NCBI GenBank assembly: GCA_964346665.1
Contig: CAYFVC010000035.1
Span: forward strand, 1-40,062
DNA: 40,062 bases
From: an uncultured archaeon
GTDB lineage: Archaea > Aenigmatarchaeota > Aenigmatarchaeia > QMZP01 > QMZT01
Direction of reading: 5' to 3'
In this document: in pieces, positions 1 through 36,110 of the stretch
Numbering within the stretch: the first letter of the stretch is position 1
How the letters are laid out: each line of letters starts with the position of its first letter
Notes under the pieces: model-generated
What the model saw: only the letters and a program-made list of their open reading frames with translations
The model's database searches: none
What the model was told of the DNA's origin: nothing
Program-made: the position numbers and the translations under genes

Positions 1-3000
1 GTTATAATGAACAGCACACTTATCAACACATTGATTATCCCACAAGGAAAAGAAGTACTTCGTGGTTCTAACTTAACTATTCAGGTCAGGGTGAACGATA
101 GTTGTGATAATAACATAACAGATGCGAACTTGACGATAAGAATGGTTAGTAACAAGACAAGTGAAACATTTAACTGCTCGGATATCACTCATGTAGGAAA
201 CGGCTACTACAACTGCACCTTCAACACCTCAGCAAATCCAGGAGTGATGCCTGCGAAGGGATATGAGATCATAATAAACTCCTCAAAAGAGTCTTACATG
301 TCGGACACCATATCGGTGAACTATTCGTCTTCATCGTCCTTCTTCATCGAAACAAAACCAGTAATAGAGAACAACTCCTGGAATCTAACGCCTTCGGATG
401 ACTGGGGCTGGGGAGAGACTTACACATTCACGGTTAACGTAAGCGATGAGGACGATGATAACATGACAGTGGAGATATGGGTGAACGTAAGTGGAGGCTG
501 GAACAACATCTACACGAATTCCACCGTGAATGGCGTAAACAAGACAGTTACGTACATCTACGACGCATTTGATAACGATGATATCGGAAACAGACAGTAC
601 GTCATAAACGTGACGGATGATGGTGACCACCCGAGAACAGGAGGTATTTCATACAACGATTCAACACCAATAGAAAACTTCACCATTTACAAGGATGACA
701 TTTCCTTCGAAATTTTGTTGGGGGATGGGGACATCGTTCAGAGAATAACGGGATCTTTCACCTTCAGGGTTAGGGGATGGGATATAGACAAGGATCCGAA
801 CGAGACAATAAGTGACGTTAGAGGTAGATTCTGGTATACAAAAGACGGAGTAACATGGAGTGTTAGCACGGAGAGATTTACCGATACGGATGATAATCTA
901 ACTTTCGAATCATCGGAGATCAGCTTCGACTGCTCGTTCTTGGTCGGGCCCCAGAAATGGAAGGCTGAAATGTATGATAACACCTATTATAAGGACACGA
1001 ACTCGACGAACATCTCATGGACCATCTTCACAACCCCGCTAAACGCTACCATGTGGCTATCAAGCGACCATTACCTGAGAGGTGTGGATAACGTAACGAT
1101 GACAGCCAACGTAACCGAAACAGATGGTTGCGGACAGGTCAGCGGGGCAACCGTGTTTTTCAATGTTACCGATGATAACCAACAGCAGGTCCATACCTGC
1201 ACAGGGCAGGAAATATCCAGTGGTATATATGAATGCAATATAACCCCAAGCACACACGCCGGCTGGTCATCAGGATTTTATAACGTGACCGCCAACATTA
1301 CCAAAACATATTACAATGGAACATCTTTGGATGGGGATGAGACCGAAACGTTCTTCCTGGCTACCAGTCCTTATTTCCAGAGTCTGCAGGCGATAAGATC
1401 AGGGGGGTCCGGCTCAACAGGAGGATGGGGCGAAACATGGGAGTTCCAAGCTAATTTGCTTGATCCTGATTCCAATTATAACAATGTCTCGCTTTACGCC
1501 AACCTCACAGGCGGATGGGAGAAGATAAACGAAACCTACACCACTCCGAAACTTGTAAGGTTCCGTGGACATCAGTTCAACTGCTCAGTCCTTCAAGGCC
1601 AGTCAACCAGCCAGAAACAATTCAACTTCACATCCATCGATGTATGGAACTACATGAGCTCGTCCGTTGCGAATTTCACGCTCGAAAAGGACGATACCAG
1701 CGCTACTGCATCCTCGCCTTATGGCGTAACGATAAACAGGGATTTTGACGATAATGAAACCTTAGAGATATACATTAGAGACACGGATAACGGTTCTTCA
1801 ATCGTGGGATCAGGAGTGGAGGGAGCGTTCTGGACGATGACGAATGAATCAGACCCCCCAAGCCAAGACGGTTCGTATATCTTAGCGAAGATAAACTACA
1901 CGGATTCCAGCGGTTATTTGAGATACACTTTCAACCCTAACTGTTCGTATGGTGTAGGAGATCTGTACTGGAGAGCTGGAACGTATTACAACGACACGTG
2001 TTACAAAGGGGCGAGTTCTGCTATTTCAGGTTACAATACAGGCGCAAGGCTAATGATAATAAAAGGACAACTGAAAACGAACCTGACAGATCCAAACGCA
2101 ACCGAGGCCTCTAACATCCTGGTTGGAGATAATGTTACGTTCAGGTTCGGGGTCCCAACGGATTGTAGCGGTATAGGGATAAACGAAAGCTACCAGACAG
2201 GGTTGTCCTTGGTTTTGCTTGAGCTGCAGAATCCGGAAAGTGGGTGGGAGAACTGTACGCAGGGTGGGGGTATAAATGATGAAGGGAATGGGTGGTACAA
2301 CTGCACATGGGAAACAAAAGGTCATAAAGGAGGGAATTACACTGTTAGGATAACTGTGAAATCCTCCTTAGATTACAACGACAACATAACCATTTTGACC
2401 AATTACACGTATCTAAACAACACACCTCCTGATTACGGTAACTTCTCTGTTTCGCCTTCAGAAGACGGGTGGGGCGCTGTCTACAACTACAGTGTTGACA
2501 TATGGGACGCCCAAGAGGATAACGTCACCTGCAAGCTTTTCGTGAAAACGAACAATTACGGGGGGCAGTGGATTTTGAAGAATTCAACTATCGTCTACGG
2601 AGGGAGGAGCAAGTGTTCTTTCCTAGTCAGCGATTTCGATTGTCAGGACATAGGAGACGATTCAGTTAATGCGTACATGTTCGAATTTGACGATGAAACC
2701 ACTATATTTAACACCACCAACCAGAGCGGACCGAACATAACGATAGACAGCGTGGAGATCTCGTATTACTATGGGAACCTCTCGGAGATCAACAGATCTG
2801 ATGACGAGCCGAACAGCACGGCGCTCCTCATGGTGTTCGTTAACGACACGGATAAGGATCAACCTGCGGATGCGAACGTTACGTTCTGGGTGACCATAGA
2901 CTCCTCTGACCCGAACAGCTGGGATTCAGGGAACGTAACCATAACGAATTCCTCAGGTATTGCGAACGTTTCTTTCAATCCTGAATGTACTCCGCAGTAT

Positions 3001-6000
3001 ACGGTCGGGAACCACTCATGGAAGGCGGGGGTAACGGATGGGTGTTATGCCGAAGTGAACATCACCGAAGATCTTAACTTAACGATTTACGGAACGCTGA
3101 AAACGACAATAAAAACAACGGAACTTCCAACGGGCACAGAAGTTCTGAGGGGCGACAACATAACAGAACAGATCTACGTGAGCAGCGATTGTTTTACGGA
3201 TGTTGATGATGCGAACACCACGATTGAATTAATCCATGAAGATAGCATTACAGTTTATAACTGCACGCCCATGTACAGTATCAGTTCCGGGGAGTACGAA
3301 TGCATATGGAACACGACGGGGATGAAGGCTAAATGGTACGATACGAGGGCGAATTCATTCCGGGACCTATACAACATGAATACAACCACCCTCGAAAACC
3401 ACTTTTTCATAAAGACAAAACCTGTTCTTTCCAACGAGACCGCTGATAAAGATCCTGCAGGTTGGGGGGAGAACAGGAGCTTCAGCGTTACAGTGAATGA
3501 TGACGACCTGGACAACGTGACAGTCGAGCTTTACATAAAGTGCTTGGAAACGGTTGGGGGGAGCTGTCCGGGAATATACTCGGATAATGACTGGCATTGG
3601 GAAAATGACGTAACGCTCGAATCTCCTGTAAACGAGACTACCCAGCTGAGCGTGAGTGATAATTTCTACGGAATTGGCTGTCCGACAACAGGGAATTGGA
3701 GCTACAGGTTCAACGCCACGGATATCCCTCACGATTACGAGGATTCGACAACACCGCACAACTTCACCGTAGAGAAAAATGACGTGATATATGAGCCAAT
3801 TAGCGGTTACGACAACGAGACTGTATGGAGGAACGGAAGTGACTCGATAGTCCTCAAAGTGAGAGTCTACGATAACGACAGCAAGTCATACGCGGGATCC
3901 GCCAACGCAACTGTATGGGTAACCAAAAACGCCTCTGATCCTGATAGCTGGGATATAGGAAAACATATAGATGTTGACGGGAGTGGCTACATTAACTACA
4001 GCTTCTTCGATGATGGCGAGATGCCGATGCATGAGTGCAACTACACCGTGGGGTTCCACAACTGGACCGCCGGAATTGGGGGAATAAATGAGGATACCTG
4101 TTATAAAACCTCGAATTCATCCATATATAACCTCAGTGTATGGTCGGATCTTAGACCGATCATAGTGAAGCCGCTCGCGACAGAGGGCTTCCTTCAGGGA
4201 GACTTGATAAACATAAGCGGTTACGTTGAGGACGATTGTTCGTGGAGGATGCCTTACGGGGTGGAAGGCGTCACCATCGACCCGTCAAGTGGAACGCAGA
4301 GGTTCATACTCAAGGCATATGTTCCTTTCGATTTATATCGTTACTGCAGTACAAACTGGCAGGAGGGAGAGGGATATTACAACTGCACATGGGACTCAGC
4401 GACTCAGCAGAGGGTGTTGTGGAACATAACGATGAGCATTGACAAGGATTACTACGCCCCGAATTCGACTACAGAGATCGAGGCCTTCCACTTGGGGAAT
4501 AACCCTTACCTTACGACTCCTGCAGGGGTCAGCCCGACTGTTGAGGGATGGGGCTACAACTTCACATTATATGTCCGCTTCGGTGATGCAGACCAGAACC
4601 CGAACAACATCTCCCTGTGGAAGAGCTTTGATAATCAAACATGGGAGCATGTGAGTACAAAGACAGATGTGGTTTCATCAGGAAAAAATCTTAACTTCCG
4701 CGAGAAGTTCACGTGCGCGGATTCCTTGCCGACGCCCGGAAGGATTAACTATTACAAGTTCAACGTCACCGATCCCTATGGATACACCGATGAGATTTAT
4801 CCCGGGACGTTCAACCTCACGGAGGACAGCGTGACCTTGTTTATAAACTACTCCGAGAGCAGCGATAACATTAGGAGGTTGGGAAACGACCAAGCACTTC
4901 TGAAATTCAGGATAAGGGATGATGATTACAGTTACCTGAATCCGAACGGGAGTCATTATCCGACAGGGGCGGACGGTCTCGTATGGGTAACCAGCAACGG
5001 AACGAATTACACAAACGTTCTTAACTGCACATCGAACGACGGACATTGTGAGGTCGATTACGACCCGAACTGTTCGACATCCGAAGTGGGTATACAATAT
5101 TGGAAGGGAGGGACGAACGATACGTGTTACGAATACGAGAATTCAACGAACGAAACGCTCGAAGTTGTTGGGCAGCTTAACATTTCAATCGTGAACCCCA
5201 CCGAAAACGTCATACTAAACAGGAACACTACCGCTGTATTCAACGCTACTGTTTATGATGATTGTGATCTCTCGATCAACGATTCTACCGTCATTTGGTA
5301 TAATGAGAGCTGGTATAACCTCACTTCAGGATACAACACTACTTGGTTTGTTCCTTACAATTATCCTTTGGGTCCAGACGTGATAAGGGCGAACACAAGC
5401 AGAACGTATTACGATGGTAACACGAATTCAACCTCCGTGTATATATACGGTTGGGCTGAGCTTGATTCCATGTATCCTCCAAATGGAACGGTTGATTTAG
5501 CAGGCGATGTGAAAACGATAAAATGTCATTTGAGGGATGCGAACACGCTCAAAAACATTACTAATTACACAGTTGCCTTCTATGTCAACGAGGAATATCA
5601 GGAATCAAAAAACACGAGCAATCAGTCAGGAGAGGAAGGCAACGCTTCATTCCTATTCAGTACGAACAGGCCTGGGGGTTGGTATAACCTCACATGCGCT
5701 ATAAACAGCAGTTCATACTGGTATTACAACGTTTCCACCCCGAACATAACAAAAGAAGTTCGTATATCAAGACCGTTGATAATAGACCAGATAGTAAGAG
5801 ACCCTTCTGATGGAAAGATTTATAGGAATGATTCTAGTGGATATTCCCCAAATCAGGTCAACATAACAGTCCACTTGAAGGATGCGGATCTGCCTGGCGA
5901 GGGAGCGGATAACGCAACGGTGTGGTTCTACAACCATTCTCAGGCATATATAGGTAACTGCACGACGAACGCTTCTGGATGGTGTAATGAATCGGTTTCC

Positions 6001-9000
6001 TGGAACCCGGTCGATACGATAACACCTAACTATTACACCATCTACATAAACGCAACAAAACCTGGAACCAATGAGAATTCAACAACCAACACCACCACCA
6101 TCGATGTGATGGGGGTATATATAGCGAACATAACTTCTCCTGCCAATGGATCACAGTATGGTAGGGGGGATCTCATCTCCTTCAACGCCAGCATAAGGGA
6201 TGAGAACTGGAACTGGTTCATTGGAGGAACCAATTGGGTGTACTGGTACAACGATACTGGGGACCATATAGAAACGACGGTTTCAGGAGAGCAAAGCTCG
6301 TTTGATTCGAGCACGCAAGCTCCAGGTTTCAGAAACTTCACCGCAAGGTCCGAACCTGGCTTGCCTCACTATTATGCTGAAAATGATACCGTTACGGTTC
6401 ATATAACTGGATGGGCTGATGTTGTGTGGGTGTATCCACCACATCTTTCGAGCGTAACGTATCCTTACACGTTCCAGAGGATTTGCAGGGTTGTTGACTA
6501 CGTTACTAGTGTAGGAATCGAAAACTATCCGATCAATTTCTCCTACTTAAACGAGACTTTGGGAGAATGGGTTTACAATGGAACGTATCTAACTAATTCG
6601 ACCGGTTATGCAAACGCCAGCTGGACACCTTGGGATAAAGGGAATGTAACGTTTAATTGTACGATCTGGGACAATTCCTCGCTTGAATACACAACAAATA
6701 TAGCGAGTGTAAGCGCAACAATATGGGTTAAGGATAATGTCCCGCCAACCATAGAGAATGTTTCAATCATTCCTAACCAGAGCATGGAGGCGTGGATGAA
6801 CACCACAAACATATCTGCGGACGTAACGGATGATTACGCGGTCGATAGTGGTGGTGTATGGGCTTACATAGGGCTTCCGAACGGAAGTTACGAGAACAAG
6901 ACAATGTCATTCGTTGAGAATAATACCTATCGCTACGAATATCTTCCGAAACTTAACGGAACCTACAATGTTACTGTATACGCAAAGGACGAAGGGCCCG
7001 AAAACAACGTTAACCATTCGGATGTTTACTACTTCGAGGTTTGGGGTAAAGCAACGGGGAAGGTGGATCAAATAGGATACGTGTACGCAGGGGGGATCAC
7101 GCAAACCAGTGATTTCAAATTCAACCTGACCATAAACTTCACCAATCTCGGGCCTCCAAATGCTTACTACGTAAACCTCACAATCTACGATGATTCCCCA
7201 GGTTACGTGAGCTACAACGAAACCTCATATTACTGCGGGAACATGACGAACGGCTCGTTCTGCAGTTGGACTCTTGAGGTCACTATATTGCCTGCTACAC
7301 CTCCAACAGGAATATACATTTACGGTAATGCTAGCTGGATGGATCCTGACAAAACAGATGCTTCTGTGATTAACTCAACATACGTGGTAGTTGCTTCCAA
7401 CCCCATTATTGAGATAATAGAGACTGGAATAAACAAGACTGTTATGCATGACAAGACAACTTACATTGATAACATCACCGTTTACTCGAGCGGAAATGAC
7501 AGGGTCAACGAAATATCGCTTTCGAACTTGGGAGGAAACTTTGATTATGATTGTTATGATTGTGGATTAATGATGGTTCCTGACTCCCAAGATGATCTAG
7601 CAGCAGGCTATAATTTCACCTCCCACATCTGGGTTACCATACCAAAGGGTAAATCACCCGGAATCTACTGGACCTACATAGTTGTTAATTCAAGTAACGG
7701 TGGATCGGATGAATACCTTCTGAACCTCACGGTTGAACCCAACGCCTCTTGGACCAGAACGCCGGATTCGTTCCCGACTGTAATAGCACAACCGAATACG
7801 AACGGTCTGGTAGGGAGGGTGAACGTCACGAACCACGGGAATGTGAAGATATACTTCGAGACATCAAGAAGGGAGGCAGCAGCATCTCTGCTCATAGTCA
7901 CACCGGAAGGTTTCGCCTCCGAAAAGTTATCGAAGAGGGTCATAAACATTTCGTATTCGGTCCCGCTGGCCTATCCGGAAGATATGTATTATGGAATTGT
8001 GGCTATAAGGAACGACACGCTACCTGCGGATCCTGTGGAAAGAACGGTTTCCTTCTGGCTAAACGTAACGGACCTCCCGCCCAACGTAACGGATTACAGC
8101 GTGATACCTACAGAGTTTGAAGTTGGTTACGAAACAGTGTATATCAACGCCACGATTGTGGATAATGTAGCGGTTGACAAGGGCTGGATAGATGTTGAGA
8201 GGCCTGGGGACATAAGTTATTCTTACGTTAGTAAACAGATTCACTCTTCGTCAGGGGATCCCGGATTCAACTACACTGAGGGTATAAATTACTCTGGAAT
8301 CATGCAGTACTTCAACATCACGATTTACAACCAGAACGAATCTTTCGTTTATGTGAACATAACGGTTAACGGTTTGCTCATCGCCTCCAACCAGTCCATC
8401 GAGAATTCAACGAACTTCACGATAGATGCCGTCCAGGAAAGCGTGAGTTTCGCTTTGCCAGGAAATCAAACCATAAACATCACTGTACAGAACTCTAGCG
8501 GAGACCTCATCAATTCAGCGTATACATCTTGGCTTAGCTACAGTTTAAGAATAGGGGAAACGTACAAAAAAATCATGGACAGGAATGCAAGCGAATTCAA
8601 CACAACCTATTGGACCAACATAAGCGGAATTCATGATTTGAGAATATGCGCGAATGACACGTCATCGAAAATCGGTTGCACATCAATCATATATCTCACA
8701 GCGGCAGGGAACACGAGTATAGCGATCTCGCCTAACGTTACAGTGATAAACGTAACGAACATGACGATCTATCAGGGAGAGGATATCCACATCGAATTCA
8801 ACATTTCGAATGTAGGTTACGCGAGGGCTTACAACATAACCATGAACATATCTTATCCAGAAAACTGGTCAGCTACTCCAGAGAATTTCTCATTCGGAAC
8901 ACTTTACAAAACTAACATATCTTCGAATTTCACCTTGATATCCGTTCCTCCGTTCACGCTGCCTGGAGAATATCTGGTAAACTTCACCGCCAACTGGATA

Positions 9001-12000
9001 AATCTTAATATATCCTATAACGGAACCAACACAACTTCCATACTAGTGAACGTGACAGCGAACCCTGTTCTGGATCTCCAAGACAGGATACCTGAAACAG
9101 GAGAAGTGGTTATAATGTCAGGGGGAACGAAGAATGAGACATTCAACGTGACTTCGATAGGTAATGTCAACGTAACCAACGTGAACTTCTCCTGCCAGTC
9201 AGGAGAGGTCTGCGAGAATTTCACGGACCCGTCCCCATTCTATCCATCAAACATATCCGTCCTTCTGGTGAATCAAACCGAATTCGTAAACATAAGCATT
9301 TCAATCCCCCCGGAATATCCAGCAGGATACTATAACGGAACAATTCTTGCGAATGGAACTTCCACCTGGGATTCCTCCTACATATACGTGAACATCCCAG
9401 AGAACATATCTTGGACTCAAGATCCTAACAACATAACCAAGGAGGTAATACAGGGAACGCAGGGAAACTTCGGGACCATAACAGTTAGAAATAACGGAAA
9501 TGTTTTCGTAAGGTTGGCGGTAGTACAATATAACTGGGGTTTAGGGACTTACGTGACGTTTTATCCAAACCAGCTTGAACTGGATATCGGGGAAACGAAA
9601 TACATATACCTTAACTACAACGCACCAGTTGTTTATTCCCTCACAAGTTACACTGGCACATTGTGGACGTACAACGAAACTGCGGACCCGAGTTACCACG
9701 ACACTCTGCTAAATTTGACCATACACCCGTACTTCGTGGATATCATTTCCCCAACAGAGGCCAATCCGAAATTAAATGTTTCCCCGAGCGATGAGATAGA
9801 GGCGAGAATCAACATAACTTACGGAAATTCAAGCGTAAACGAAAGCATGACTTTCAATCTCTCGCTATCCAACAGCACCACGCTCGTTTACGTGGACATG
9901 ACAAATGTGAGCTACAATTCATCCGAAGGTTTGTGGTACGTGAATTTCACCGCCCCAAATTTTGCGCTTCAGAAGGGTTATGATTTGAATGTGACAGCGA
10001 TTTATTCGAAAACCCCTGTTTCAAACGTAACTTATTACGACTTCGAAGCAAAAGCCGTTATATACAGGGATGATATCCAACCAACCATTTTGATATCAGT
10101 TCCGCCTAGGGTACCCGCAAACACAACAGCCGTTATATACGCGAACGTGACCGACCCAGGAGGGGTTGAAAACGCGAGCATCGTTGTTTACGACCCGGAC
10201 AGCATAGCAGAGTACGGAGACATGACTTTCCTTTACAGGTATGTGGACACGTATGTTTACAAATATGATTACACGAACACGAGCAAGGTGGGAGTATATA
10301 ATGTAAACGTTACGGGTTGTGATAAATCCGGGAACTGTAATTCAACGAACAGGACTTTCGAAATTTACGTAGGGGCGTGGTTCTCTGGTTACGCGAAAGA
10401 TATAGTTAGAACAGGCAACCCTGTCATAAACCAGAGTTTCTGGTTCTATGATGATATACAATACGGAAATCTCCTTATAAACTTCTCAAGCGATCCGGAT
10501 ACAGGATATTACAACGAGAGTATAGACGCGAGGATGTATGATTTGAAAGTGGACTTCTGGAATGACAGCGTTTCGCTTTTGAACATTCCGTTACTTCAAG
10601 ATGTCCACAACCCGATACAATTCGGTAGTGTTACAAACCTTAACCGTATATCAGCAGGTGGAGCAGGGGTGTACAGGAGTGTGGTCGTTAACAATTCACT
10701 TAATTACTCCACAGGAAGCATCACTTTGAACTATTCAAGTTTTGAGAATGTTGCAATACTCGGTAACCTAACCATTTATCACTGTCCTTCGTTCGGTGTC
10801 AACGTCGTACAAATTTGCACTTCGAGCTGGACTAGGATGAGCTCGTCACTTAACATCACAACCACCTCGCTCACGGCGAACACCACAAACCTTCAAGGAG
10901 TGTTCGCAATTGCGAACTTCATATGCGGGGATGGGGAATGTGATGAGGACTACGGAGAATCAATTGCCAACTGCCCACAGGATTGTGAAATACCCATACC
11001 TCCACCACCGGTTACTCCAGGCGTTGGGGGGAGAGGTGCGAGGGTTGAAGTACCACCTAGTGTTCCACAAGTCCCTGTCGAAATAAAGTCAACCCTTATA
11101 TTCGTTACCCTTCGTCCGGGTGAGCATGAAATACACTCGATAGACGTGACGAATAATCTAGGAACGGGAATCGTTGTGGAGACAAGCGTGACGGGGAACG
11201 CCTGGGAGCTCGTTCAGATAGAAAAACCTGTCATGAACGTTTCCGCGAGGTCAACAGGAGTTTTGAAAGTCAAACTCTACGCCTTGCCAACGACGCAGGC
11301 AGGGATATACACTGGTGATATCATATCGAAGGTGAGATATCGCAACATCACGCATATAACGCCCGTAACCATAAAGGTAGAGATCCCGCCAGAACCACTA
11401 CTCGACGTGAAGGTCAAGGCATTGACAAAAACAGTAGAGCCGGGTGGCAATCTCAAATTCGAGGTAACTCTTATGAACATGGGACCAACCGCCACCATCG
11501 ATGACATAGTGGTCATTTACGAAATAAAGGGTTTGGAAACCGAAAGAGTGATAACGAAGAGCAGCGAAACGCTAGCAGTGGAGAATGTGAAAAGTTTCAC
11601 CAAAACCATCCCCATCCCTTGGGATACGCCACAAGACAGGTATATGGTTGAGGTCAACGTTACGTATTGGTACGGGAAGAAGTCGGCGTTTTCTGTGGAT
11701 TCGTTTGATGTTTTCGTTCTGCCCGCGCCTCTAGCCCTGTTACGAGCGGTGTTCATGCACTGGCTGACGTATGTGGTAGTATTCATGTTAATCCCAGGAT
11801 TCTACTTCGGAAGAAGACTTTACATGATTTGGATGGAGAAGAAAAGGAGAAGAAGGAGGTACATATTCCCAATAGACTTCAAGAAGCTTCCGAAGACTGG
11901 GCCTGATTCGATCCTCGTTGGTAAAATAGCAGAAACGGATGTGAAGGCATACGTGGATACCAAAGCCCTCATGATGCATTCGCTTTCGGCAGGGGCGACC

Positions 12001-12927
12001 GGAGCCGGCAAAACAGTTTCAGCGATGATAGTGGCGGAAGAACTTTTGAAGAGAGGTGTCCCTATCATCGTTTTCGACCCGACCGCCCAGTGGACAGGGT
12101 TCATGAAAGCATGCAGGGATAAGAGGATGTTTGATATCTACCCGAATTTCGGCCTTAAACCAGAGGACGCGAAGGCGTTCAAGACCAACATCGTTCTGGT
12201 GACAGACCCCGAAATGGAGGTGGACGTACAGAAGTACAGAAAACCTGGGGAAATAACGGTATTCGTTATGAACAGACTTGAACCCGGACAGATAGATAAA
12301 TTTGTTAGGAAAACAGTTTCTTCTGTGTTCCGCGCCGCACTTCCGGAGGAGAGGGAGATAAAGTTACTTCTGGTTTACGATGAGGTCCACAGGCTGCTTC
12401 CGAAGTACGGAGGTAAGGGAGGTTACATCGCGCTGGAAAGGGCTTGCCGAGAGTTCAGGAAGTGGGGAATCGGTGTGTTCATGATCTCCCAAGTCCTCAT
12501 GGATTTCCGAGGGGCGATACGTGCTAACATCGCCACGGAAATACAATTGAGGACGAAGTACGAAGGTGACATAGGAAGGGTGAAGACAAAATACGGAACG
12601 GATTACGCATCCAAGGTCGTGAAACTCACGACAGGAACAGCGTTAGTACAGAACCCAGCCTTCAACGAGGGTAAACCGTATTTCATAAGTTTCCGTCCGC
12701 TTCTTCACAACACTGGAAGGTTAACGGATAAGGAGATAAACAAGTACGTGAAAATCCAGAAGGAAATAGAGAAAATAGAGAAAAGGGTCGAGGCGATGAA
12801 AGCGAGAAAGGTCGACACAACAGACATAGAGATTGAACTCAACCTCGCGAAGGACAAGATGAAGGCAGGGCAGTTCACAATGGCCGAAAGCTACATAGGA
12901 TCATTGAAAGCCAGGCTAAAAGTGTAA
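1..12927 (+). CDS. Giant single-pass surface glycoprotein (>4,306 aa, probably truncated at the window start) with a C-terminal cytoplasmic HerA/FtsK-superfamily (DUF87-like) P-loop ATPase domain
   Basis: Uninterrupted 12.9-kb frame that is open to position 1 (GTT ATA ATG...). There is no signal peptide after the first Met, and a super-repeat unit begins at the window edge, so the real start is probably upstream. The extracellular part is made of Ig-like/CARDB-like repeats with about one N-X-S/T sequon per 10 aa. One TM helix and a polybasic stretch follow, then Walker A/B motifs and a terminal coiled coil. Confidence 0.85.
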   Translation, partial: VIMNSTLINTLIIPQGKEVLRGSNLTIQVRVNDSCDNNITDANLTIRMVSNKTSETFNCSDITHVGNGYYNCTFNTSANPGVMPAKGYEIIINSSKESYMSDTISVNYSSSSSFFIETKPVIENNSWNLTPSDDWGWGETYTFTVNVSDEDDDNMTVEIWVNVSGGWNNIYTNSTVNGVNKTVTYIYDAFDNDDIGNRQYVINVTDDGDHPRTGGISYNDSTPIENFTIYKDDISFEILLGDGDIVQRITGSFTFRVRGWDIDKDPNETISDVRGRFWYTKDGVTWSVSTERFTDTDDNLTFESSEISFDCSFLVGPQKWKAEMYDNTYYKDTNSTNISWTIFTTPLNATMWLSSDHYLRGVDNVTMTANVTETDGCGQVSGATVFFNVTDDNQQQVHTCTGQEISSGIYECNITPSTHAGWSSGFYNVTANITKTYYNGTSLDGDETETFFLATSPYFQSLQAIRSGGSGSTGGWGETWEFQANLLDPDSNYNNVSLYANLTGGWEKINETYTTPKLVRFRGHQFNCSVLQGQSTSQKQFNFTSIDVWNYMSSSVANFTLEKDDTSATASSPYGVTINRDFDDNETLEIYIRDTDNGSSIVGSGVEGAFWTMTNESDPPSQDGSYILAKINYTDSSGYLRYTFNPNCSYGVGDLYWRAGTYYNDTCYKGASSAISGYNTGARLMIIKGQLKTNLTDPNATEASNILVGDNVTFRFGVPTDCSGIGINESYQTGLSLVLLELQNPESGWENCTQGGGINDEGNGWYNCTWETKGHKGGNYTVRITVKSSLDYNDNITILTNYTYLNNTPPDYGNFSVSPSEDGWGAVYNYSVDIWDAQEDNVTCKLFVKTNNYGGQWILKNSTIVYGGRSKCSFLVSDFDCQDIGDDSVNAYMFEFDDETTIFNTTNQSGPNITIDSVEISYYYGNLSEINRSDDEPNSTALLMVFVNDTDKDQPADANVTFWVTIDSSDPNSWDSGNVTITNSSGIANVSFNPECTPQYTVGNHSWKAGVTDGCYAEVNITEDLNLTIYGTLKTTIKTTELPTGTEVLRGDNITEQIYVSSDCFTDVDDANTTIELIHEDSITVYNCTPMYSISSGEYECIWNTTGMKAKWYDTRANSFRDLYNMNTTTLENHFFIKTKPVLSNETADKDPAGWGENRSFSVTVNDDDLDNVTVELYIKCLETVGGSCPGIYSDNDWHWENDVTLESPVNETTQLSVSDNFYGIGCPTTGNWSYRFNATDIPHDYEDSTTPHNFTVEKNDVIYEPISGYDNETVWRNGSDSIVLKVRVYDNDSKSYAGSANATVWVTKNASDPDSWDIGKHIDVDGSGYINYSFFDDGEMPMHECNYTVGFHNWTAGIGGINEDTCYKTSNSSIYNLSVWSDLRPIIVKPLATEGFLQGDLINISGYVEDDCSWRMPYGVEGVTIDPSSGTQRFILKAYVPFDLYRYCSTNWQEGEGYYNCTWDSATQQRVLWNITMSIDKDYYAPNSTTEIEAFHLGNNPYLTTPAGVSPTVEGWGYNFTLYVRFGDADQNPNNISLWKSFDNQTWEHVSTKTDVVSSGKNLNFREKFTCADSLPTPGRINYYKFNVTDPYGYTDEIYPGTFNLTEDSVTLFINYSESSDNIRRLGNDQALLKFRIRDDDYSYLNPNGSHYPTGADGLVWVTSNGTNYTNVLNCTSNDGHCEVDYDPNCSTSEVGIQYWKGGTNDTCYEYENSTNETLEVVGQLNISIVNPTENVILNRNTTAVFNATVYDDCDLSINDSTVIWYNESWYNLTSGYNTTWFVPYNYPLGPDVIRANTSRTYYDGNTNSTSVYIYGWAELDSMYPPNGTVDLAGDVKTIKCHLRDANTLKNITNYTVAFYVNEEYQESKNTSNQSGEEGNASFLFSTNRPGGWYNLTCAINSSSYWYYNVSTPNITKEVRISRPLIIDQIVRDPSDGKIYRNDSSGYSPNQVNITVHLKDADLPGEGADNATVWFYNHSQAYIGNCTTNASGWCNESVSWNPVDTITPNYYTIYINATKPGTNENSTTNTTTIDVMGVYIANITSPANGSQYGRGDLISFNASIRDENWNWFIGGTNWVYWYNDTGDHIETTVSGEQSSFDSSTQAPGFRNFTARSEPGLPHYYAENDTVTVHITGWADVVWVYPPHLSSVTYPYTFQRICRVVDYVTSVGIENYPINFSYLNETLGEWVYNGTYLTNSTGYANASWTPWDKGNVTFNCTIWDNSSLEYTTNIASVSATIWVKDNVPPTIENVSIIPNQSMEAWMNTTNISADVTDDYAVDSGGVWAYIGLPNGSYENKTMSFVENNTYRYEYLPKLNGTYNVTVYAKDEGPENNVNHSDVYYFEVWGKATGKVDQIGYVYAGGITQTSDFKFNLTINFTNLGPPNAYYVNLTIYDDSPGYVSYNETSYYCGNMTNGSFCSWTLEVTILPATPPTGIYIYGNASWMDPDKTDASVINSTYVVVASNPIIEIIETGINKTVMHDKTTYIDNITVYSSGNDRVNEISLSNLGGNFDYDCYDCGLMMVPDSQDDLAAGYNFTSHIWVTIPKGKSPGIYWTYIVVNSSNGGSDEYLLNLTVEPNASWTRTPDSFPTVIAQPNTNGLVGRVNVTNHGNVKIYFETSRREAAASLLIVTPEGFASEKLSKRVINISYSVPLAYPEDMYYGIVAIRNDTLPADPVERTVSFWLNVTDLPPNVTDYSVIPTEFEVGYETVYINATIVDNVAVDKGWIDVERPGDISYSYVSKQIHSSSGDPGFNYTEGINYSGIMQYFNITIYNQNESFVYVNITVNGLLIASNQSIENSTNFTIDAVQESVSFALPGNQTINITVQNSSGDLINSAYTSWLSYSLRIGETYKKIMDRNASEFNTTYWTNISGIHDLRICANDTSSKIGCTSIIYLTAAGNTSIAISPNVTVINVTNMTIYQGEDIHIEFNISNVGYARAYNITMNISYPENWSATPENFSFGTLYKTNISSNFTLISVPPFTLPGEYLVNFTANWINLNISYNGTNTTSILVNVTANPVLDLQDRIPETGEVVIMSGGTKNETFNVTSIGNVNVTNVNFSCQSGEVCENFTDPSPFYPSNISVLLVNQTEFVNISISIPPEYPAGYYNGTILANGTSTWDSSYIYVNIPENISWTQDPNNITKEVIQGTQGNFGTITVRNNGNVFVRLAVVQYNWGLGTYVTFYPNQLELDIGETKYIYLNYNAPVVYSLTSYTGTLWTYNETADPSYHDTLLNLTIHPYFVDIISPTEANPKLNVSPSDEIEARINITYGNSSVNESMTFNLSLSNSTTLVYVDMTNVSYNSSEGLWYVNFTAPNFALQKGYDLNVTAIYSKTPVSNVTYYDFEAKAVIYRDDIQPTILISVPPRVPANTTAVIYANVTDPGGVENASIVVYDPDSIAEYGDMTFLYRYVDTYVYKYDYTNTSKVGVYNVNVTGCDKSGNCNSTNRTFEIYVGAWFSGYAKDIVRTGNPVINQSFWFYDDIQYGNLLINFSSDPDTGYYNESIDARMYDLKVDFWNDSVSLLNIPLLQDVHNPIQFGSVTNLNRISAGGAGVYRSVVVNNSLNYSTGSITLNYSSFENVAILGNLTIYHCPSFGVNVVQICTSSWTRMSSSLNITTTSLTANTTNLQGVFAIANFICGDGECDEDYGESIANCPQDCEIPIPPPPVTPGVGGRGARVEVPPSVPQVPVEIKSTLIFVTLRPGEHEIHSIDVTNNLGTGIVVETSVTGNAWELVQIEKPVMNVSARSTGVLKVKLYALPTTQAGIYTGDIISKVRYRNITHITPVTIKVEIPPEPLLDVKVKALTKTVEPGGNLKFEVTLMNMGPTATIDDIVVIYEIKGLETERVITKSSETLAVENVKSFTKTIPIPWDTPQDRYMVEVNVTYWYGKKSAFSVDSFDVFVLPAPLALLRAVFMHWLTYVVVFMLIPGFYFGRRLYMIWMEKKRRRRRYIFPIDFKKLPKTGPDSILVGKIAETDVKAYVDTKALMMHSLSAGATGAGKTVSAMIVAEELLKRGVPIIVFDPTAQWTGFMKACRDKRMFDIYPNFGLKPEDAKAFKTNIVLVTDPEMEVDVQKYRKPGEITVFVMNRLEPGQIDKFVRKTVSSVFRAALPEEREIKLLLVYDEVHRLLPKYGGKGGYIALERACREFRKWGIGVFMISQVLMDFRGAIRANIATEIQLRTKYEGDIGRVKTKYGTDYASKVVKLTTGTALVQNPAFNEGKPYFISFRPLLHNTGRLTDKEINKYVKIQKEIEKIEKRVEAMKARKVDTTDIEIELNLAKDKMKAGQFTMAESYIGSLKARLKV
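7..5175 (+). repeat. Five tandem protein-level super-repeats (342-351 aa, about 1.03 kb each) inside the giant ORF
   Basis: Units start at nt ~19, 1039, 2071, 3097 and 4150; a different module starts at 5176. Each unit keeps the same motif order. First comes a Cys-containing domain (D.C ... Y.C ... G.Y.C.W[NDE][TS]). Second comes FF[IL].T.P ... GWG[E] ... DN.T[VC][EK]. Third comes F[TN]..KDD ... [VF]W[VY]T..SDP.SWD ... W[KRT][AG]G ...[DN][TG]CY. The units are divergent at the DNA level. Confidence 0.8.
11746..11811 (+). other. Single transmembrane helix of giant protein 1, followed by a polybasic stop-transfer stretch
   Basis: AVFMHWLTYVVVFMLIPGFYFG is followed by RRLYMIWMEKKRRRRRY (to nt 11862). 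By the positive-inside rule the downstream part is cytoplasmic. N-X-S/T sequons stop completely after this point. Confidence 0.75.
11860..12720 (+). other. HerA/FtsK-superfamily (DUF87/VirB4/CedB-like) ATPase domain
   Basis: Walker A AGATGAGKT (11989-12015) sits in the context LMMHSLSAGATGAGKTV...GVPIIVFDPTAQW. Walker B is LLLVYDE-VHRLLP (12364-12384). GIGVFMISQVLMDF...ANIATEIQLRT matches the HerA-type xxSQrP...T.i.lr pattern as I remember it. A coiled coil follows at 12720-12924. Confidence 0.7.
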
Positions 12928-12978: not shown

Positions 12979-14523
12979 ATGAGGAGAAGGGTGAAAAAAG
13001 GTAGGGTAAAGAGGAAACCGAGAAGAAAAATTTCTGCAAAAAAAGCGGAAGAAATTCCTAAATTAACGGAAAGCCTTGAACATTTAATGCACCAGAAAGA
13101 GGAGATACGTGCTTTGCTTTCTTCGCTGGAGGATGCGTACAGCGAGGCTACTATTATGGAGGAGGACTACAGAGAAATCAAATCCAAGAATCTTACGAGA
13201 CTTGAGGAGATAAACAAGAAGATAGAGACTTTGAAAAGGGAGGGGGTGAAACCTAAACCCCCGCCAAGACCAGAAATCCCGGTGGTCGAACCTCCGACTG
13301 CAGTCCCTGTTGAGGCACCTCCGATTCCTGCTGCTCCCCCTGTTGTTGTTGAGGAGAAGGTTGAGAGAAAACCAAAGAAAAAGAAGGGATTAGTGAGCCC
13401 AGAGGATCTGAAAAAGCTAGAAGTGGACCTCGCAGAAAGAGTAAAGGAAATGGTGGAGGACATAGGGGCAAAGGTATCCGAAAAGGATGTTCTTGAGATA
13501 AAGAACAAATTCACCAGATTCGATACGGAAATAGAGAAGATGAAAGCGTTGATCGAAACCGTAAGGGAAGGTAAAAAGGTTTCTGATGAAAAGATCCAGA
13601 GGGTTGTGGAAGGCCTCGCTGAGATCCGAACCATGGTCTACGGAAGGGAGGCTTCCATGAAGGAGTGGGAGGTCAAACTGGAAAAGGTTATGGATATCAT
13701 GAACAGGGTCGAACCGGAAAAGATAATGATGGAGATGGGAAGAAGGGACAAGGAAGTGGAAAATCAGAATTTGAGGATAAACAAGCTTGAGGAAATGACA
13801 AAGGAGTTTGGGGAAATGGTTAAAAATATAGAAAAGGTTTTGCGCGACATAGGGAGTCTGGAAAATGTTGTTAAGGTAAGTAGCGATGCTTCTGAAAAAT
13901 TGATGAACATGCAGAATATCGAAAGGAATAACCAGAAGATGTTAGATAAAATTCAGGGTCTTTATGCTGAACTCAGCAAACGAATGGAGGAATTCATGCT
14001 TTATCGAGCTAAGCAAGATCGGATGGAGGATTTGATTAATGAGATGCTGAAAAACCTTGACGACATCAACACTAAGGCCGCGTACTTCGTAACGAGGGAT
14101 GATTTAGAGTCGTTCAGGGCGAGCATGCAGGCTGCCGCTCCCTCCGCACCTTCACCAAAAGATGAACTAAGTGATTTAAAATCAGAGAAGGAAGAAATAG
14201 AAATGCTCATGAAATCGTTAGAGGAGGAGTTCAAGGGCGTTGCGATTTCGAAGGAAGAGTACGAAAAAATGAAGAATGCGAATTTAGCAAAACTTAAGGA
14301 GATAGAGGGGAAAATAAAGGAAGCTGAAAAGGGGAAGGTTTTGGGAGCGATCAAAGAGGGGAAACCAGAGGGAAAGCCAAAGAAAATCGAAAGGGGAATA
14401 CCCCCAGAAGAAAAGGGGAAGGAAGAAATGCTTTTGAAGGATCTGGAAGAGACCTTCAAAAAGGGGTTCATAAGCAAGGAAGCGTATGAGAAAACCAAGA
14501 AGATGATTTTGAGAAAAGGGTGA
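12979..14523 (+). CDS. Cytoplasmic coiled-coil protein with a polybasic N-terminus, a Pro-rich linker and three SHOCT-like motifs
   Basis: ATG start and no TM segment. N-terminus is MRRRVKKGRVKRKPRRK; linker is KPKPPPRPEIPVVEPPTAVPVEAPPIPAAPP. The central part is E/K-rich with heptad character. SHOCT-like L..LE..[YF]k.g.IS.E.Y...K motifs lie at 13114-13203, 14206-14295 and 14431-14520. The TGA stop overlaps the GTG start of the next gene. Confidence 0.8.
   Translation: MRRRVKKGRVKRKPRRKISAKKAEEIPKLTESLEHLMHQKEEIRALLSSLEDAYSEATIMEEDYREIKSKNLTRLEEINKKIETLKREGVKPKPPPRPEIPVVEPPTAVPVEAPPIPAAPPVVVEEKVERKPKKKKGLVSPEDLKKLEVDLAERVKEMVEDIGAKVSEKDVLEIKNKFTRFDTEIEKMKALIETVREGKKVSDEKIQRVVEGLAEIRTMVYGREASMKEWEVKLEKVMDIMNRVEPEKIMMEMGRRDKEVENQNLRINKLEEMTKEFGEMVKNIEKVLRDIGSLENVVKVSSDASEKLMNMQNIERNNQKMLDKIQGLYAELSKRMEEFMLYRAKQDRMEDLINEMLKNLDDINTKAAYFVTRDDLESFRASMQAAAPSAPSPKDELSDLKSEKEEIEMLMKSLEEEFKGVAISKEEYEKMKNANLAKLKEIEGKIKEAEKGKVLGAIKEGKPEGKPKKIERGIPPEEKGKEEMLLKDLEETFKKGFISKEAYEKTKKMILRKG
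13114..13203 (+). other. SHOCT-like motif copy 1 (LLSSLEDAYSEATIMEEDYREIKSKNLTRL)
   Basis: Read from the translation. Resembles the SHOCT pattern (L..L..L...G.It.eEye..K..LL) recalled from memory. Confidence 0.45.
14206..14295 (+). other. SHOCT-like motif copy 2 (LMKSLEEEFKGVAISKEEYEKMKNANLAKL)
   Basis: Read from the translation. This is the closest match to the SHOCT pattern. Confidence 0.5.
14431..14520 (+). other. SHOCT-like motif copy 3 (LLKDLEETFKKGFISKEAYEKTKKMILRKG) at the extreme C-terminus
   Basis: Read from the translation. A C-terminal position is typical for SHOCT. Confidence 0.5.
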
Positions 14524-17500
14524 GTGAAATCCGCCACGGCAAATTGATTTTGGCGTTTGTGATCTTAGGAGTTTTCATGGTTTTGAATTTGGTTAGCACG
14601 TACTCTCAATCTTACGATTATGAATGGTGGGACGTTCGCTGGCGTTACAGAATCGGTTTGGAAATAAACAACACCGGTTACGAAAGAACGGACTGGCCCA
14701 TAGAATACGAAATGAACTTCACAAATATTCTGGAGGGTATGAACGTAACCGGGACGTTCGATGAGAATTCCACCCGCGTGATAGAATACAACTCAACAGG
14801 TTCTATTCTTCATGAGCTCCCCTCCCAATTCGATAAAGGTGAAGGTTATGATCCAGCCACGAATGCTTTCGGAACGATAGTTTTTGAAATGAACGGGACC
14901 ACGCCTGCGGATGAAAAACGTTATTTCTACATTTATTTCGATATAACGGAAAATGATGACAAAGACCAGCCGAGCTATTCAACTGACCTTGTTTACAATT
15001 ACACTGGAAGCGTCTCGGAATTCAATGTGAACAACTCGCTTTTCCAATGGTGGATTGACACAGAAAGAGGGGAGAACACATCAGGTATTTACCATGTTAA
15101 GGATATTTATGCAGGAGAAAATGAAGTATTGCTGACCGATCCCTCAGACAACAGGACAGCCGAGTACTCCGAATTCTCGAATGCGAGCGATACATTCGGG
15201 TTCGACTTCAGGAACAACGCAACCTTCAAATATGTGGGACCTGTTAGAATTGTTGTTGAGCAGAAGGGTTACGAAATCTTCTGGAACCAACCAGATAACA
15301 AAACTAATGAAGGGTATATGATAAAAAGATACACGTTCTACCGGGAAATCGACTGGATTAAGATTGAACAGATATTTGTTAACAACGCCAGTTATAACAT
15401 AACGAGAAATTCAACCGTTGCCGGTGCCTTTGCTGTTTACGTTAACTATACATTCAACTACGGGTCAGGTTATTCTACCATGTCGGACACGAACGATCCA
15501 GGATCTTACGGATGGGCGGTGCAGGACGGGGGACAGGTGTGGATAGGGATTGTGAATAAATACGAAAACGGAACAAATAACTTCTTCGGCCTTGAGGACA
15601 CCGTAACCGGAAGGATCGGGATACAACTAAACGAAACGAACATGACACTGGGCAGTTCCATAAAACACATCGCCCACCTTCAGTTCAATGCAAGCGGTGA
15701 GGCAGGACAAGAAGATTATTTCAAAAATTTCGTGAACCAGAGCATCACACCTCTCAACATAACTGAACTCACCCCAGAATTTTGGAGTGTTGTGGTTGAG
15801 GGGAAGTTCTACATGAACGGAACGGACGAGGCGAACGTTTTCAACAGGAACGAGAGCGTTATACTATTGGCGAACGTAACCGATCTTTACAACATCTCCA
15901 AAAAAGTGAACGCGAGCTTGGATTTTGGAGTCGGCGAAGTGAACGTAACGCTATACGATGACGGAAACCACAGCGACGGACAGGCGAATGACAAGGTTTA
16001 TGCTAACACGTATAACATAACAGACTCGGATACCTTGGGTTTGTGGAACGTAACGTTTAGGGTATACAACGAAACATGGTATTTGGTTAACATAAGCTGG
16101 TCAACCTTCAACGTAACGGATGTGTATAACGTAACGGTTAACATAACGAATCCCACGGGCTTCACGGACAGGGTAGTGAACACAACTGTTTACGTGAGGA
16201 ATTACAGGAAGGATATTTGGATTGTTAACGCGACTCTGAACTGTTCGTTTGATTCCACAGAAATCCCTCAGGATAACATAACGGACAACGGGAATGGAAC
16301 TTATGATGTAAAGTTCAATGCCCCTGCATACGCAGGCTTGTTCACCCTTAACTGCAGCGCAACTAGAAATAATAACACAGGATGGGGAACGGACGAGTTC
16401 ACTTCAGAGACCTATACTACAAACGTCAGCATATTGAAGATTCCAGAAAACCTAACAGCGGATAACGTCACATCTTATTCGAATCAAACATTCAACATAA
16501 CCATCATCGCCGAGAACATAGCGAACGGGAGTGCGTATAATTCTAACATCACGCTTAATTTCTCAACCCCAAACATAACTGCGAACTTAACTTTTGTATC
16601 ATGCGGAAACATCCTGATAACGAAAAACTGTACGAAAACTTTCCAGATAATAGTTTTCAATGCGACACCTGCAGGAAACTATTCCCTGAACATAAGCGTT
16701 AGGTGGAGGAATTCAAATGGGTCTGTCCCCGGATATAACGAAAGCGTTATGAATATAACTGTCCTTGAAAATCCTATCCTTGACCTTTCGAAAAATTATG
16801 TATTCGGGATGATAGCCATAGGGATGGCGTTGAAAAACATAGATAACTTCACTGTGTATTCGCTGGGTAACGAGCCTCTGCAAAACGTAACGTTCGATGT
16901 TCTAGGTTTCAGTGGTAACTTCACCTTTGAGTTCATCCCCGAAAACTTTTCCTCAATTGGTGTTGGTATTTCGGAAAATGTGGAGATTTGGATTAACTCC
17001 ACAAATGATACTCTACCTGGGGAGTACAACGGAACGATAAACGTAACCAGCGATAACAACGGGTTCGAGATCATAAACGTTACCATCGCTGTTTCAGAAA
17101 CTAACATGACTATCGAAACGGACGTCGATAATTATACCGCTGAAAACGTTACGTGGTATAAAAACGAGACTTTCCCTATTTTCGTCAACACAACAAATAT
17201 AGGGAATGCAACCGCTTATAACGTGAGTCTGATTCTGAATTTCTCAAGTGATAATATAACCGCAAACGTAACCTCCCAAAACTGCGGAAATATCCCGAAG
17301 TCCGGGGTATGCAACTCCTCATTCCTCGTGATAATAAAAAGCGGAACACCTTCCGGGAACTACACCGTAAATGTGAGCGTGGAATGGGAGGATGAAAAAG
17401 GGATAAACACAAACGTAACGACTGTCAACATAACCGTACTTTCGAATATCTTGCTAATTGTACAACCGGATGAATTGTCGGATAATGTTACGCACGGGAC

Positions 17501-20574: not shown

Positions 20575-21234
20575 ATGCGGAAAAAATCGAAACTCACGGA
20601 TTACAAGAATTTCTGGCTCATATGGATAAACTGCGCTGGGGAAAAAGAAGGGGTCTCGTTGTTTAAGATTCAGACAGAGTGGGATGTGAAAACGAATTAC
20701 TTGTACCACAACGAAGTGGGTCTGGGGAGACCGTTGTTCAGGTCCATGGTAAGGGAGAATTACATAGCGAAAGAAGGTAAGCGCCTGAAAGCGAAATTTG
20801 AATGGATACCAAAATTCATAAGGGAAAAATACGAAGGGGAGAGGAAGGGTCTATGGTTTCCCGATTCTTTGCTCAGGATTAAATGGGGGGCTGTTCAGAA
20901 ATTCATCGAAAAATATCATCCCGTACTTTTCAGAATGAAAAACCTAAAACTTCTGTACAAGAATGATAAGGAATTAATAGGGAAATCCGGAACGCATGTA
21001 TTCACGGATGTTTTTCTTTACGTGTTGTTTTCTAATCTCAGAACATTCTGCAAGAAATACGAGGCTGATGTTGTTCTGAGAATAATATCCACCCTAATTT
21101 CACTTTCAACCGATAGGGATTTGCTGAATTACATACACAGGCTAGATTCAGAACTAGGGAAAGTTCCCGACTTCCCCGTATTGGTTAGGGACGAGAACGA
21201 ACTGTCGAAAATATTGTGTACGCTGAAATGGTAA
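20575..21234 (+). CDS. Hypothetical protein (219 aa), no family recognised
   Basis: ATG-initiated ORF with its own upstream A/T box and coding-like composition. There is no TM segment and no motif I can name. Confidence 0.6.
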   Translation: MRKKSKLTDYKNFWLIWINCAGEKEGVSLFKIQTEWDVKTNYLYHNEVGLGRPLFRSMVRENYIAKEGKRLKAKFEWIPKFIREKYEGERKGLWFPDSLLRIKWGAVQKFIEKYHPVLFRMKNLKLLYKNDKELIGKSGTHVFTDVFLYVLFSNLRTFCKKYEADVVLRIISTLISLSTDRDLLNYIHRLDSELGKVPDFPVLVRDENELSKILCTLKW

Positions 21235-21236
21235 AG

Positions 21237-21244
21237 ATATAAAA
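21237..21244 (+). promoter_or_regulatory. TATA-like box (ATATAAAA) 24-31 nt upstream of the ATG at 21268
   Basis: Part of GATATAAAATATAAAAAC in a 33-nt spacer. Confidence 0.3.
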
Positions 21245-21267
21245 TATAAAAACAAGATAATGGTAAG

Positions 21268-33420: not shown

Positions 33421-33421
33421 T

Positions 33422-34947: not shown

Positions 34948-34961
34948 GCTATCGACCTCTC

Positions 34962-35432: not shown

Positions 35433-35469
35433 AATTAAATAAATGTAAAAGGGGAGATAAATATCATTC

Positions 35470-36048: not shown

Positions 36049-36069
36049 AATATATATTTCGGGCAGCCC

Positions 36070-36079
36070 GTATAAAAAC
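36070..36079 (-). promoter_or_regulatory. TATA-like box (minus-strand TTTTTATAC) upstream of the pilin gene
   Basis: Lies 22-31 nt upstream of the ATG at 36048, in a divergent intergenic region. Confidence 0.35.
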
Positions 36080-36110
36080 TTAATCAAATGTTTCTTTTCG
36101 AAAGCAAATC

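Follow-up and report, generated by a model that had tools for sequence, protein, structure and literature searches.

A giant surface protein of an Aenigmatarchaeota archaeon with a C-terminal HerA-clade ATPase, a probable member of the SPEARE-type family

The DNA analysed here, termed the window, is a stretch of 40,062 nt (positions 1–40,062 of contig CAYFVC010000035.1, assembly GCA_964346665.1) from an uncultured archaeon of the Aenigmatarchaeota. A giant gene occupies positions 1–12927 of the + strand. Reading frame 1 displays no stop codon from base 1 to the TAA at positions 12925–12927, which gives 4,308 codons; the first-pass annotation of this DNA, which had reported no stop between an ATPase domain and the extracellular part of the protein, was right in this respect. 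The frame is already open at base 1, thus the open reading frame is cut by the 5′ end of the window, its true N-terminus is missing and the gene has at least 4,308 codons. The translated sequence shows a very large ectodomain, a single transmembrane (TM) helix, and a cytosolic ATPase of the HerA clade followed by a coiled coil. The protein is very likely a SPEARE-type giant surface protein with a C-terminal ATPase.

The HerA-clade RecA-like ATPase core is at positions 11905–12714 (+), as delimited with Pfam, AlphaFold2 (AF2) and Foldseek. Its motifs, all on the + strand, are Walker A AGATGAGKT (11989–12015), Walker B LLLVYDE (12364–12384), ERACREFRKWGIG (12436–12474), ISQ (12484–12492), ATEIQLR (12532–12552) and FRPLLH (12691–12708). 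A C-terminal three-helix coiled-coil tail follows at positions 12715–12924 (+), where AF2 places helices at residues 330–355, 361–375 and 379–394 of the modelled segment; the predicted local distance difference test (pLDDT) is above 90 for residues 330–394. The Walker A, Walker B, ISQ and IQLR motifs, the helical tail and a KKRRRRR patch, all pointed out in the first-pass annotation, can be read directly in the sequence. The AF2 model made with the family alignment (pLDDT 94, predicted template modelling score (pTM) 0.90) shows, in this order, a long helix, a short linker with a beta-hairpin, the RecA-like core and the three-helix coiled coil.

Pfam searches gave HerA_C (6.6e-10) and DUF87 (2.1e-9), both exceeding their gathering scores, while ResIII (0.0039), DEAD (0.002) and AAA_10 were under theirs. 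T4SS-DNA_transf gave 22.1 bits (cut-off 20.1) over residues 71–134 at the P-loop, with no stretch passing alone. A phmmer search against the PDB yielded HerA-type helicases exclusively (best E-value = 8e-7), and the family profile searched against PDB sequences yielded HerA (2.5e-12) and IcmO/DotL (0.004). With Foldseek, the top PDB match of the model is Sulfolobus HerA (4d2i, 6e-14), followed by HerA-NurA and SIR2-HerA, and then by the coupling protein TcpA (2.4e-10) and the FtsK motor (4e-9). These structure and profile comparisons uphold the earlier assignment to the HerA-FtsK superfamily and its HerA-like character. No curated NCBIfam model comes near its cut-off for the ATPase domain: CedD gives 35.8 bits against 600, with model positions 201–266 alone matched, HerA_Thermprot 24.8 against 800, helicase_HerA 20.4 against 970, and TraD 24.7 against 366 (TraD and TraC together range over 17–25 bits against 366–647). 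As judged by profile scores and the model, the ATPase is a HerA-clade member of the HerA-FtsK superfamily of about 290 amino acids (aa) with all catalytic motifs, and by the same scores it is outside every curated subfamily tested.

Conservation was assessed over an alignment of 88 relatives, with residues numbered in the modelled ATPase segment. K91, E215, H217, R218, R237, R240, K241, S250 and Q251 are invariant and D214 is conserved in 99%. K91 is the Walker A lysine and D214-E215 are the Walker B Asp-Glu; the catalytic residues are thus invariant or nearly so, in line with a working domain of the type first proposed. The same holds for an ExxxRExRKxG motif (E233, R237, E238, R240, K241, G243), and further acidic and polar positions of the ATPase are conserved. 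R218, R237, R240 and Q251, all invariant, are candidates for the arginine finger acting in trans and for the polar sensor residue.

The TM helix, LALLRAVFMHWLTYVVVFMLIPGFYFG, encompasses positions 11731–11811 (+; residues 3911–3937), as seen from hydrophobicity and the long helix of the AF2 model, with a Kyte-Doolittle peak at residues 3913–3931. The hydrophobic helix originally placed at 11746–11811 falls inside it. The patch KKRRRRR (11839–11859, +) is of the positive-inside type and is followed by a conserved juxtamembrane motif with the consensus RYxxPxDxxKLPKxG in the 88 relatives. Since glycosylation sequons are confined to the ectodomain and the basic patch comes after the helix, the topology is N-out, C-in, i.e. 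that of a type I membrane protein.

No segment of the core is less conserved than the TM helix: its mean majority-residue fraction is 0.38 versus 0.67 for the ATPase, and the alignment of the 88 relatives shows no conserved polar residue in it. This poor conservation and the lack of a conserved polar residue argue that the helix is an anchor rather than the lining of a channel. The "six-helix membrane passage" suggested at first, in which helices of the ATPase protein itself would surround the substrate, is therefore not borne out.

The ectodomain (positions 1–11730, +; at least 3,910 aa) is extracellular and heavily N-glycosylatable. It is rich in N, T and S and has 57 Cys. In the 3,912-aa ectodomain 262 N-x-S/T sequons were counted, versus 72 expected from its composition; the 373-aa cytosolic part has none, and cytoplasmic proteins elsewhere in the window have 0–3. 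The N-terminal part (positions 1–5280, +) is made up of tandem super-repeats, each of about 345 aa, that have diverged to 22%–32% identity, as self-BLAST of 300-aa chunks gave offsets of ~340–350 aa from residue 1 to ~1760. A single NPCBM_assoc domain is found at residues 2925–2999 (Pfam, 1.1e-9), and there are weak Pfam matches to the Ig-like Filamin and Big_1.

A conserved membrane-proximal module is at positions 10798–11730 (+); in 156 of 180 related loci one match reaches into it by at least 150 aa ahead of the TM helix. It includes a Cys-rich knot (10924–10989, +) and a Pro-rich linker (10990–11076, +) and is completed by beta-rich domains of about 220 aa. Its Pfam matches are weak throughout (Nis1, 5e-5; DUF11; ASH). 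The ~300 extracellular residues closest to the membrane share the conservation of the TM helix and the ATPase. Going by these alignments, what the family conserves is a unit of the final ~700 aa, composed of the membrane-proximal ectodomain, TM helix, ATPase and coiled coil, and the giant N-terminal part is variable and freely expanded.

The fusion of ectodomain and ATPase was examined in related loci from GTDB species representatives, using the best 80 loci or a set of 180, among at least 556; the upstream flank fetched per locus was at most 3,333 codons. In 71 of the best 80, no stop interrupts the frame between the ATPase and the upstream edge of the locus. The TM-helix junction is crossed by a single in-frame tblastn match in 170 of the 180, and in 156 of these 180 loci the match begins at least 150 aa before the TM helix, many matches beginning near residue 3600–3606 of the window protein. 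The in-frame fusion claimed in the first-pass annotation is therefore real.

One locus (L001, positions 6081–11203) shows how a separate ATPase gene can come to be annotated. Here the ATPase is annotated as a gene of its own (P0006, ~400 aa) downstream of an 8,615-aa gene. The locus contains a collinear orthologue of window residues 473–4307 which is split by several frame changes, and the ATPase-bearing frame begins already within the ectodomain. A second locus, L005, likewise displays an orthologous giant gene cut into many open reading frames by frame changes. Where contig ends or frame errors break the giant frame, the ATPase is often annotated as a "DUF87" gene of its own, and most NCBI entries of the family are listed as "DUF87 domain-containing protein, partial", a pitfall for anyone annotating it.

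A hidden stop or frame shift that would make two genes of one had been named as the case against the fusion, but it is not a general pattern in the relatives. The related, independently assembled loci keep the same in-frame fusion, hence by these alignments an assembly artefact at the junction is excluded as a general explanation; the assembly of the window itself is judged via its relatives.

The family was searched for exhaustively with HMMER in 1.84 billion cluster representatives. The ATPase is matched by 1,171 of them at E ≤ 0.001 and by 361 at E ≤ 1e-30, and at least 556 loci with a relative are present among GTDB species representatives. One homologue search listed fragments of less than 700 aa alone, and the giants emerged in the exhaustive search: among the best 144 new relatives, 112 exceed 1,000 aa and 33 exceed 3,000 aa, with the longest having a chain length of 7,665 aa. 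In many of the relatives of 1,000–7,665 aa the ATPase forms the very C-terminal end, and in the others it is at or close to that end. Typically, one hydrophobic helix precedes Walker A by about 80 residues. An N-terminal hydrophobic stretch is found in 75 of the 115 relatives that begin with Met. Short versions also occur; the upstream frame is about 320 codons in a few loci, sometimes as a second copy beside a giant gene. The closest matches are proteins from Aenigmarchaeota metagenome-assembled genomes (up to 92% identity), annotated as "DUF87 domain-containing protein, partial".

Relatives of the Woesearchaeota type (P0232; loci L102–L141) display an acidic extension past the coiled coil, about 250–350 codons after the ATPase match, with the repeated motif NG..V.S...LYDEI..M.D..F..HV....NDFA.WI. 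A few loci (L008, L079, L130, L152) are on contigs labelled Heimdallarchaeota, Halanaerobiaceae, Saccharibacteria, Alphaproteobacteria or Methanosarcinales, and many of loci L101–L176 carry the label "uncultured Methanosarcinales". These odd taxon labels are probably due to mis-binning or mislabelling rather than true occurrence.

The published counterpart of this architecture is the SPEARE group, a name given to very long proteins of nanohaloarchaea (Hamm 2019; PMC6642349). SPEARE proteins are mostly extracytoplasmic and have a single TM helix close to the C-terminus and a conserved intracellular part. The latter is their most conserved region, was read as a type III restriction enzyme domain, and was also reported in Woesearchaeota, Aenigmarchaeota, Micrarchaeota and Altiarchaeales (PMC6642349). 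In a later description (Reva 2023; PMC10266531, section 11) the order is a Sec signal, an Ig-like ectodomain, a TM helix, a cytosolic VirB4/TraG-like ATPase and a terminal coiled coil.

A BLASTP comparison of the window protein, from the TM helix to the C-terminus, with the C-terminus of the SPEARE of Ca. Nha. antarcticus shows 38% identity over 393 aa (E-value = 8e-99), and the alignment is collinear from the TM helix through the last helix. Motifs common to both are AGATGSGKT, LIVYDEVHRLL, REFRKWGVG and FRPLLH. In addition, locus L103 is a contig of Euryarchaeota archaeon SM23-78 with a relative 51% identical to the window ATPase, and this organism is listed in Table S3 of PMC6642349. The homology of the tail, the published list of taxa, the SM23-78 match and the same order of parts together place the window protein, with high probability, in the SPEARE-type family as its Aenigmatarchaeota (DPANN) member, with the anatomy described above. 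The statement in the first-pass annotation that no adhesin-HerA fusion was known thus has to be withdrawn, as the architecture is that of SPEARE. The HerA-type assignment is more accurate than the original reading as a restriction enzyme, and it is compatible with the VirB4/TraG-like reading because all of these are in the same superfamily.

Searches of the literature on DPANN archaea with DUF87 or HerA yielded no description of the fusion, and the link came by way of the nanohaloarchaeal papers. The ATPase goes unmentioned in papers that deal with the attachment organelle and with cryo-tomography of DPANN archaea, and the family is not covered in the giant-gene preprint of West-Roberts et al.

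Several points weigh against the SPEARE assignment or its use as a guide to the window protein. Any signal peptide, together with the N-terminus of the giant protein, is outside the window. All SPEARE ectodomains are said to contain one or more laminin-G domains in addition to other domains for adhesion (PMC6642349), but the window ectodomain, whose N-terminus is outside the window, gives no Pfam match to laminin-G at E ≤ 0.01. The reference SPEARE sequence was machine-read from Fig. S18 of the supporting information (SI) of PMC6642349, with stray marks removed. Lastly, in proteomics, peptides of the SPEARE ectodomain and those of the TM/cytosolic part were found in different size fractions (PMC6642349); for this reason the ectodomain and the TM-ATPase part may be separated by cleavage after synthesis.

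Immediately downstream, 51 bases after the stop codon of the giant gene, is an open reading frame for an all-helical coiled-coil protein of 514 aa (positions 12979–14523, +), referred to below as the partner. It is basic and KR-rich at the N-terminus and contains three helix-hairpin motifs that are alike. The gene next downstream of the giant one encodes a homologue in 80 of 88 Aenigmatarchaeota-centred loci and in 18 of 71 Woesearchaeota-centred loci, the homology covering the central region (residues ~177–435). In the Woesearchaeota-centred set the giant protein itself often bears the extra acidic C-terminal extension instead of the partner, and most Woesearchaeota-type loci with the extension show no detectable homologue of the partner. 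The AF2 model of the partner is all-alpha with a pTM of 0.22; the protein has no family assignment, and Foldseek with this model found nothing under an E-value of 0.29. The model therefore points to no function. No mention of it was found in the SPEARE papers.

The next gene (positions 14520–20459, +) has a GTG start that overlaps the stop of the partner gene by 4 bases. It encodes another large surface glycoprotein (1,979 aa), which has 121 sequons, an NPCBM_assoc domain (1.4e-13), an N-terminal anchor, a C-terminal TM helix and a short helical cytosolic tail. Full-length homologues occur after the partner gene in about 12 loci. The cytosolic tail resembles the hairpin motifs of the partner, and a similarity to SHOCT/GvpG is weak (E-value 0.01–0.03); a SHOCT-like motif common to the two was considered and rejected as statistically unsupported (SHOCT_2, 0.033; GvpG, 0.003–0.02).

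An archaeal MinD-type ATPase is encoded at positions 21268–22038 (+; NCBIfam minD_arch, 7.7e-72, over the cut-off), and in 30 loci such an ATPase recurs no more than 10 kilobases downstream of the giant gene. It may serve to position the surface complex. A 219-aa protein encoded ahead of it (the two genes span 20575–22038, +) has no family match and has conserved counterparts in 10 related loci.

Positions 22345–28417 (+) encode three long coiled-coil proteins in a row, of 639, 1,096 and 289 aa, with overlapping stops and starts. This region is very purine-rich, with a GC skew of up to 0.44; its Pfam matches to Apolipoprotein and Baculo_PEP_C are coiled-coil cross-matches, and a 948-aa antisense open reading frame (24338–27184, –) is probably a by-product of the skewed composition. 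Farther along, at positions 32932–36087 (–), are five adjacent genes for small proteins of 160–356 aa. None of these has a Pfam match, and each shows a short charged N-terminus and then one strongly hydrophobic helix, a pattern reminiscent of archaeal type IV pilin-like precursors.

DPANN archaea rely on being in physical contact with their hosts. The function tentatively favoured here, as one possibility among several, is that of a translocase working with other contact-site components. It is favoured because every solved relative found is a translocase and because its catalytic residues vary hardly or not at all. The ATPase tail would oligomerise beneath the membrane, as in ring-forming relatives, and this would gather several glycoprotein stalks at the contact with the host cell. 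ATP would then be spent in moving a polymer, DNA or unfolded protein, through a conduit at the contact site, one built with other components and not from the six helices of the ATPase protein itself. Scaffolding or positioning of the assembly might fall to the coiled-coil protein encoded downstream and to the MinD-type ATPase nearby. A point that tells against this proposal is that no channel or type IV secretion components are recognisable in the window. A more specific version, which is quite improbable as it stands, is that the 700-aa core, the 514-aa partner, the second glycoprotein and MinD form a contact-site machine in which a HerA-clade ring pulls host DNA or another polymer inward; if true, such a machine would explain the feeding of nucleotide-auxotrophic DPANN cells.

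An alternative with some standing, though unlikely, is that the cytosolic domain is a VirB4/TraG-type secretion ATPase and that the giant protein acts as a "straw" injecting effectors into the host, as proposed by Reva (2023; PMC10266531); cytoplasmic bridges have been reported (PMC11001535). The T4SS-DNA_transf match, although of about 60 residues at the P-loop, is above its cut-off, there are the matches to the coupling protein TcpA and to IcmO/DotL given above, and NCBIfam shows weak matches to TraD and TraC. The HerA matches, however, are consistently stronger than the coupling-protein matches. There is also no VirB4 N-terminal domain, no second VirB4-like gene downstream and no other secretion component in the window, and the single TM helix is unconserved.

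It is also conceivable, if improbable, that the ATPase does not translocate anything. ATP binding and hydrolysis would then do no more than switch oligomerisation, so that the adhesin stalks are gathered or let go and linked to a cytoplasmic coiled-coil scaffold, an inside-out regulation of adhesion. The poorly conserved anchor helix and the conserved coiled-coil tail agree with this, as do the partner directly downstream in most Aenigmatarchaeota-centred loci, the MinD-type positioning ATPase in 30 loci and the three further long coiled-coil proteins at 22345–28417. On the other hand, the solved relatives found (HerA, FtsK, TcpA) are all translocases, and an invariant or nearly invariant full catalytic set is expected of a working motor.

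It is very unlikely that the intracellular domain is a type III restriction enzyme for the degradation of imported DNA (Hamm 2019) or an anti-phage defence ATPase of the HerA/MADS type. PADLOC shows a match to the compact mad8 ATPase over the whole core (1.2e-15) and matches to defence HerA models (to 6e-11), and the ResIII and DEAD matches would suit a restriction enzyme. These two matches, however, are under their gathering scores and cover shared P-loop features alone. The 373 cytosolic residues contain no nuclease domain, as the AF2 model shows an ATPase core plus helices, and Reva et al. concluded likewise (PMC10266531). Defence partners (SIR2, DUF4297, other mad genes) are not present in the window. 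That two separate genes were misjoined by a sequencing or assembly error near 11700–11860 is hardly credible: the separate call of P0006 and the short versions with ~320-aa ectodomains would fit it, but L001 is a frame-broken collinear orthologue and the relatives cross the junction in frame.

SPEARE-type proteins are the most conspicuous candidates for the transfer of material across the DPANN-host contact. The fusion architecture was already known. What is added is the spread of the family, its ~700-aa core, the poorly conserved helix and the coiled-coil partner. With the numbers of loci and cluster representatives given above, the family is very widespread in DPANN and no nanohaloarchaeal curiosity; its invariant part is a HerA-clade motor plus ~300 membrane-proximal extracellular residues, and a specific coiled-coil partner accompanies the family in Aenigmatarchaeota. 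This yields two concrete constructs for experiments, the 700-aa core and the tail together with the 514-aa partner.

Among known systems, HerA of the HerA-NurA pair (Sulfolobus 4d2i, Thermococcus 9x1l) is the best match to the RecA-like core of the window protein in both sequence and structure, and the Walker A, Walker B and REGRK-like (REFRKWG) motifs of the two align. Unlike HerA, the window ATPase is membrane-anchored and has no N-terminal HAS barrel; between the TM helix and the P-loop strand AF2 shows about 20 unstructured residues and one beta-hairpin, and the Pfam matches cover the P-loop part. No NurA is encoded in the window. A canonical HerA-NurA identity was rejected on these two grounds and on NCBIfam scores far under the cut-offs.

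TcpA, TraD/VirD4, IcmO/DotL, FtsK and the crenarchaeal Ced ATPase similarly have an N-terminal anchor and then a cytosolic ring-type ATPase. The window protein differs from these membrane-anchored FtsK-HerA motors in having one TM helix, versus two or more, and a giant ectodomain upstream of the anchor. In contrast to the conjugation and Ced systems, it reaches no family cut-off and has no conjugation or Ced partners nearby in the window. Membership in VirB4/TraG(VirD4) was considered and set aside, as the VirB4 N-terminal domain (PF03135) has no match in the window, T4SS-DNA_transf is matched over residues 71–134 alone and there are no partner genes. The Ced DNA-import ATPase was set aside likewise, given the CedD score and the lack of nearby Ced partners.

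The SPEARE proteins of Nanohaloarchaeota (Ca. Nanohaloarchaeum antarcticus NAR1_1133; Ca. Nanopetramus SG9; SVXNc_0300; BNXNv_0298) are different in several respects. The window protein is from another phylum, the Aenigmatarchaeota, and is not halophilic, and its ectodomain is unrelated in sequence, with ~345-aa super-repeats versus about 75 Ig-like domains. In the part of its ectodomain inside the window, Pfam at E ≤ 0.01 detected no laminin-G, protease or toxin-like regions. The downstream neighbour is a coiled-coil protein in the window and a second VirB4-like ATPase in nanohaloarchaea. The order of parts is nevertheless the same: both have most of their length extracytoplasmic, with NPCBM_assoc-type domains in the ectodomain, and both have a single TM helix on the C-terminal side, a cytosolic C-terminus and a terminal coiled coil.

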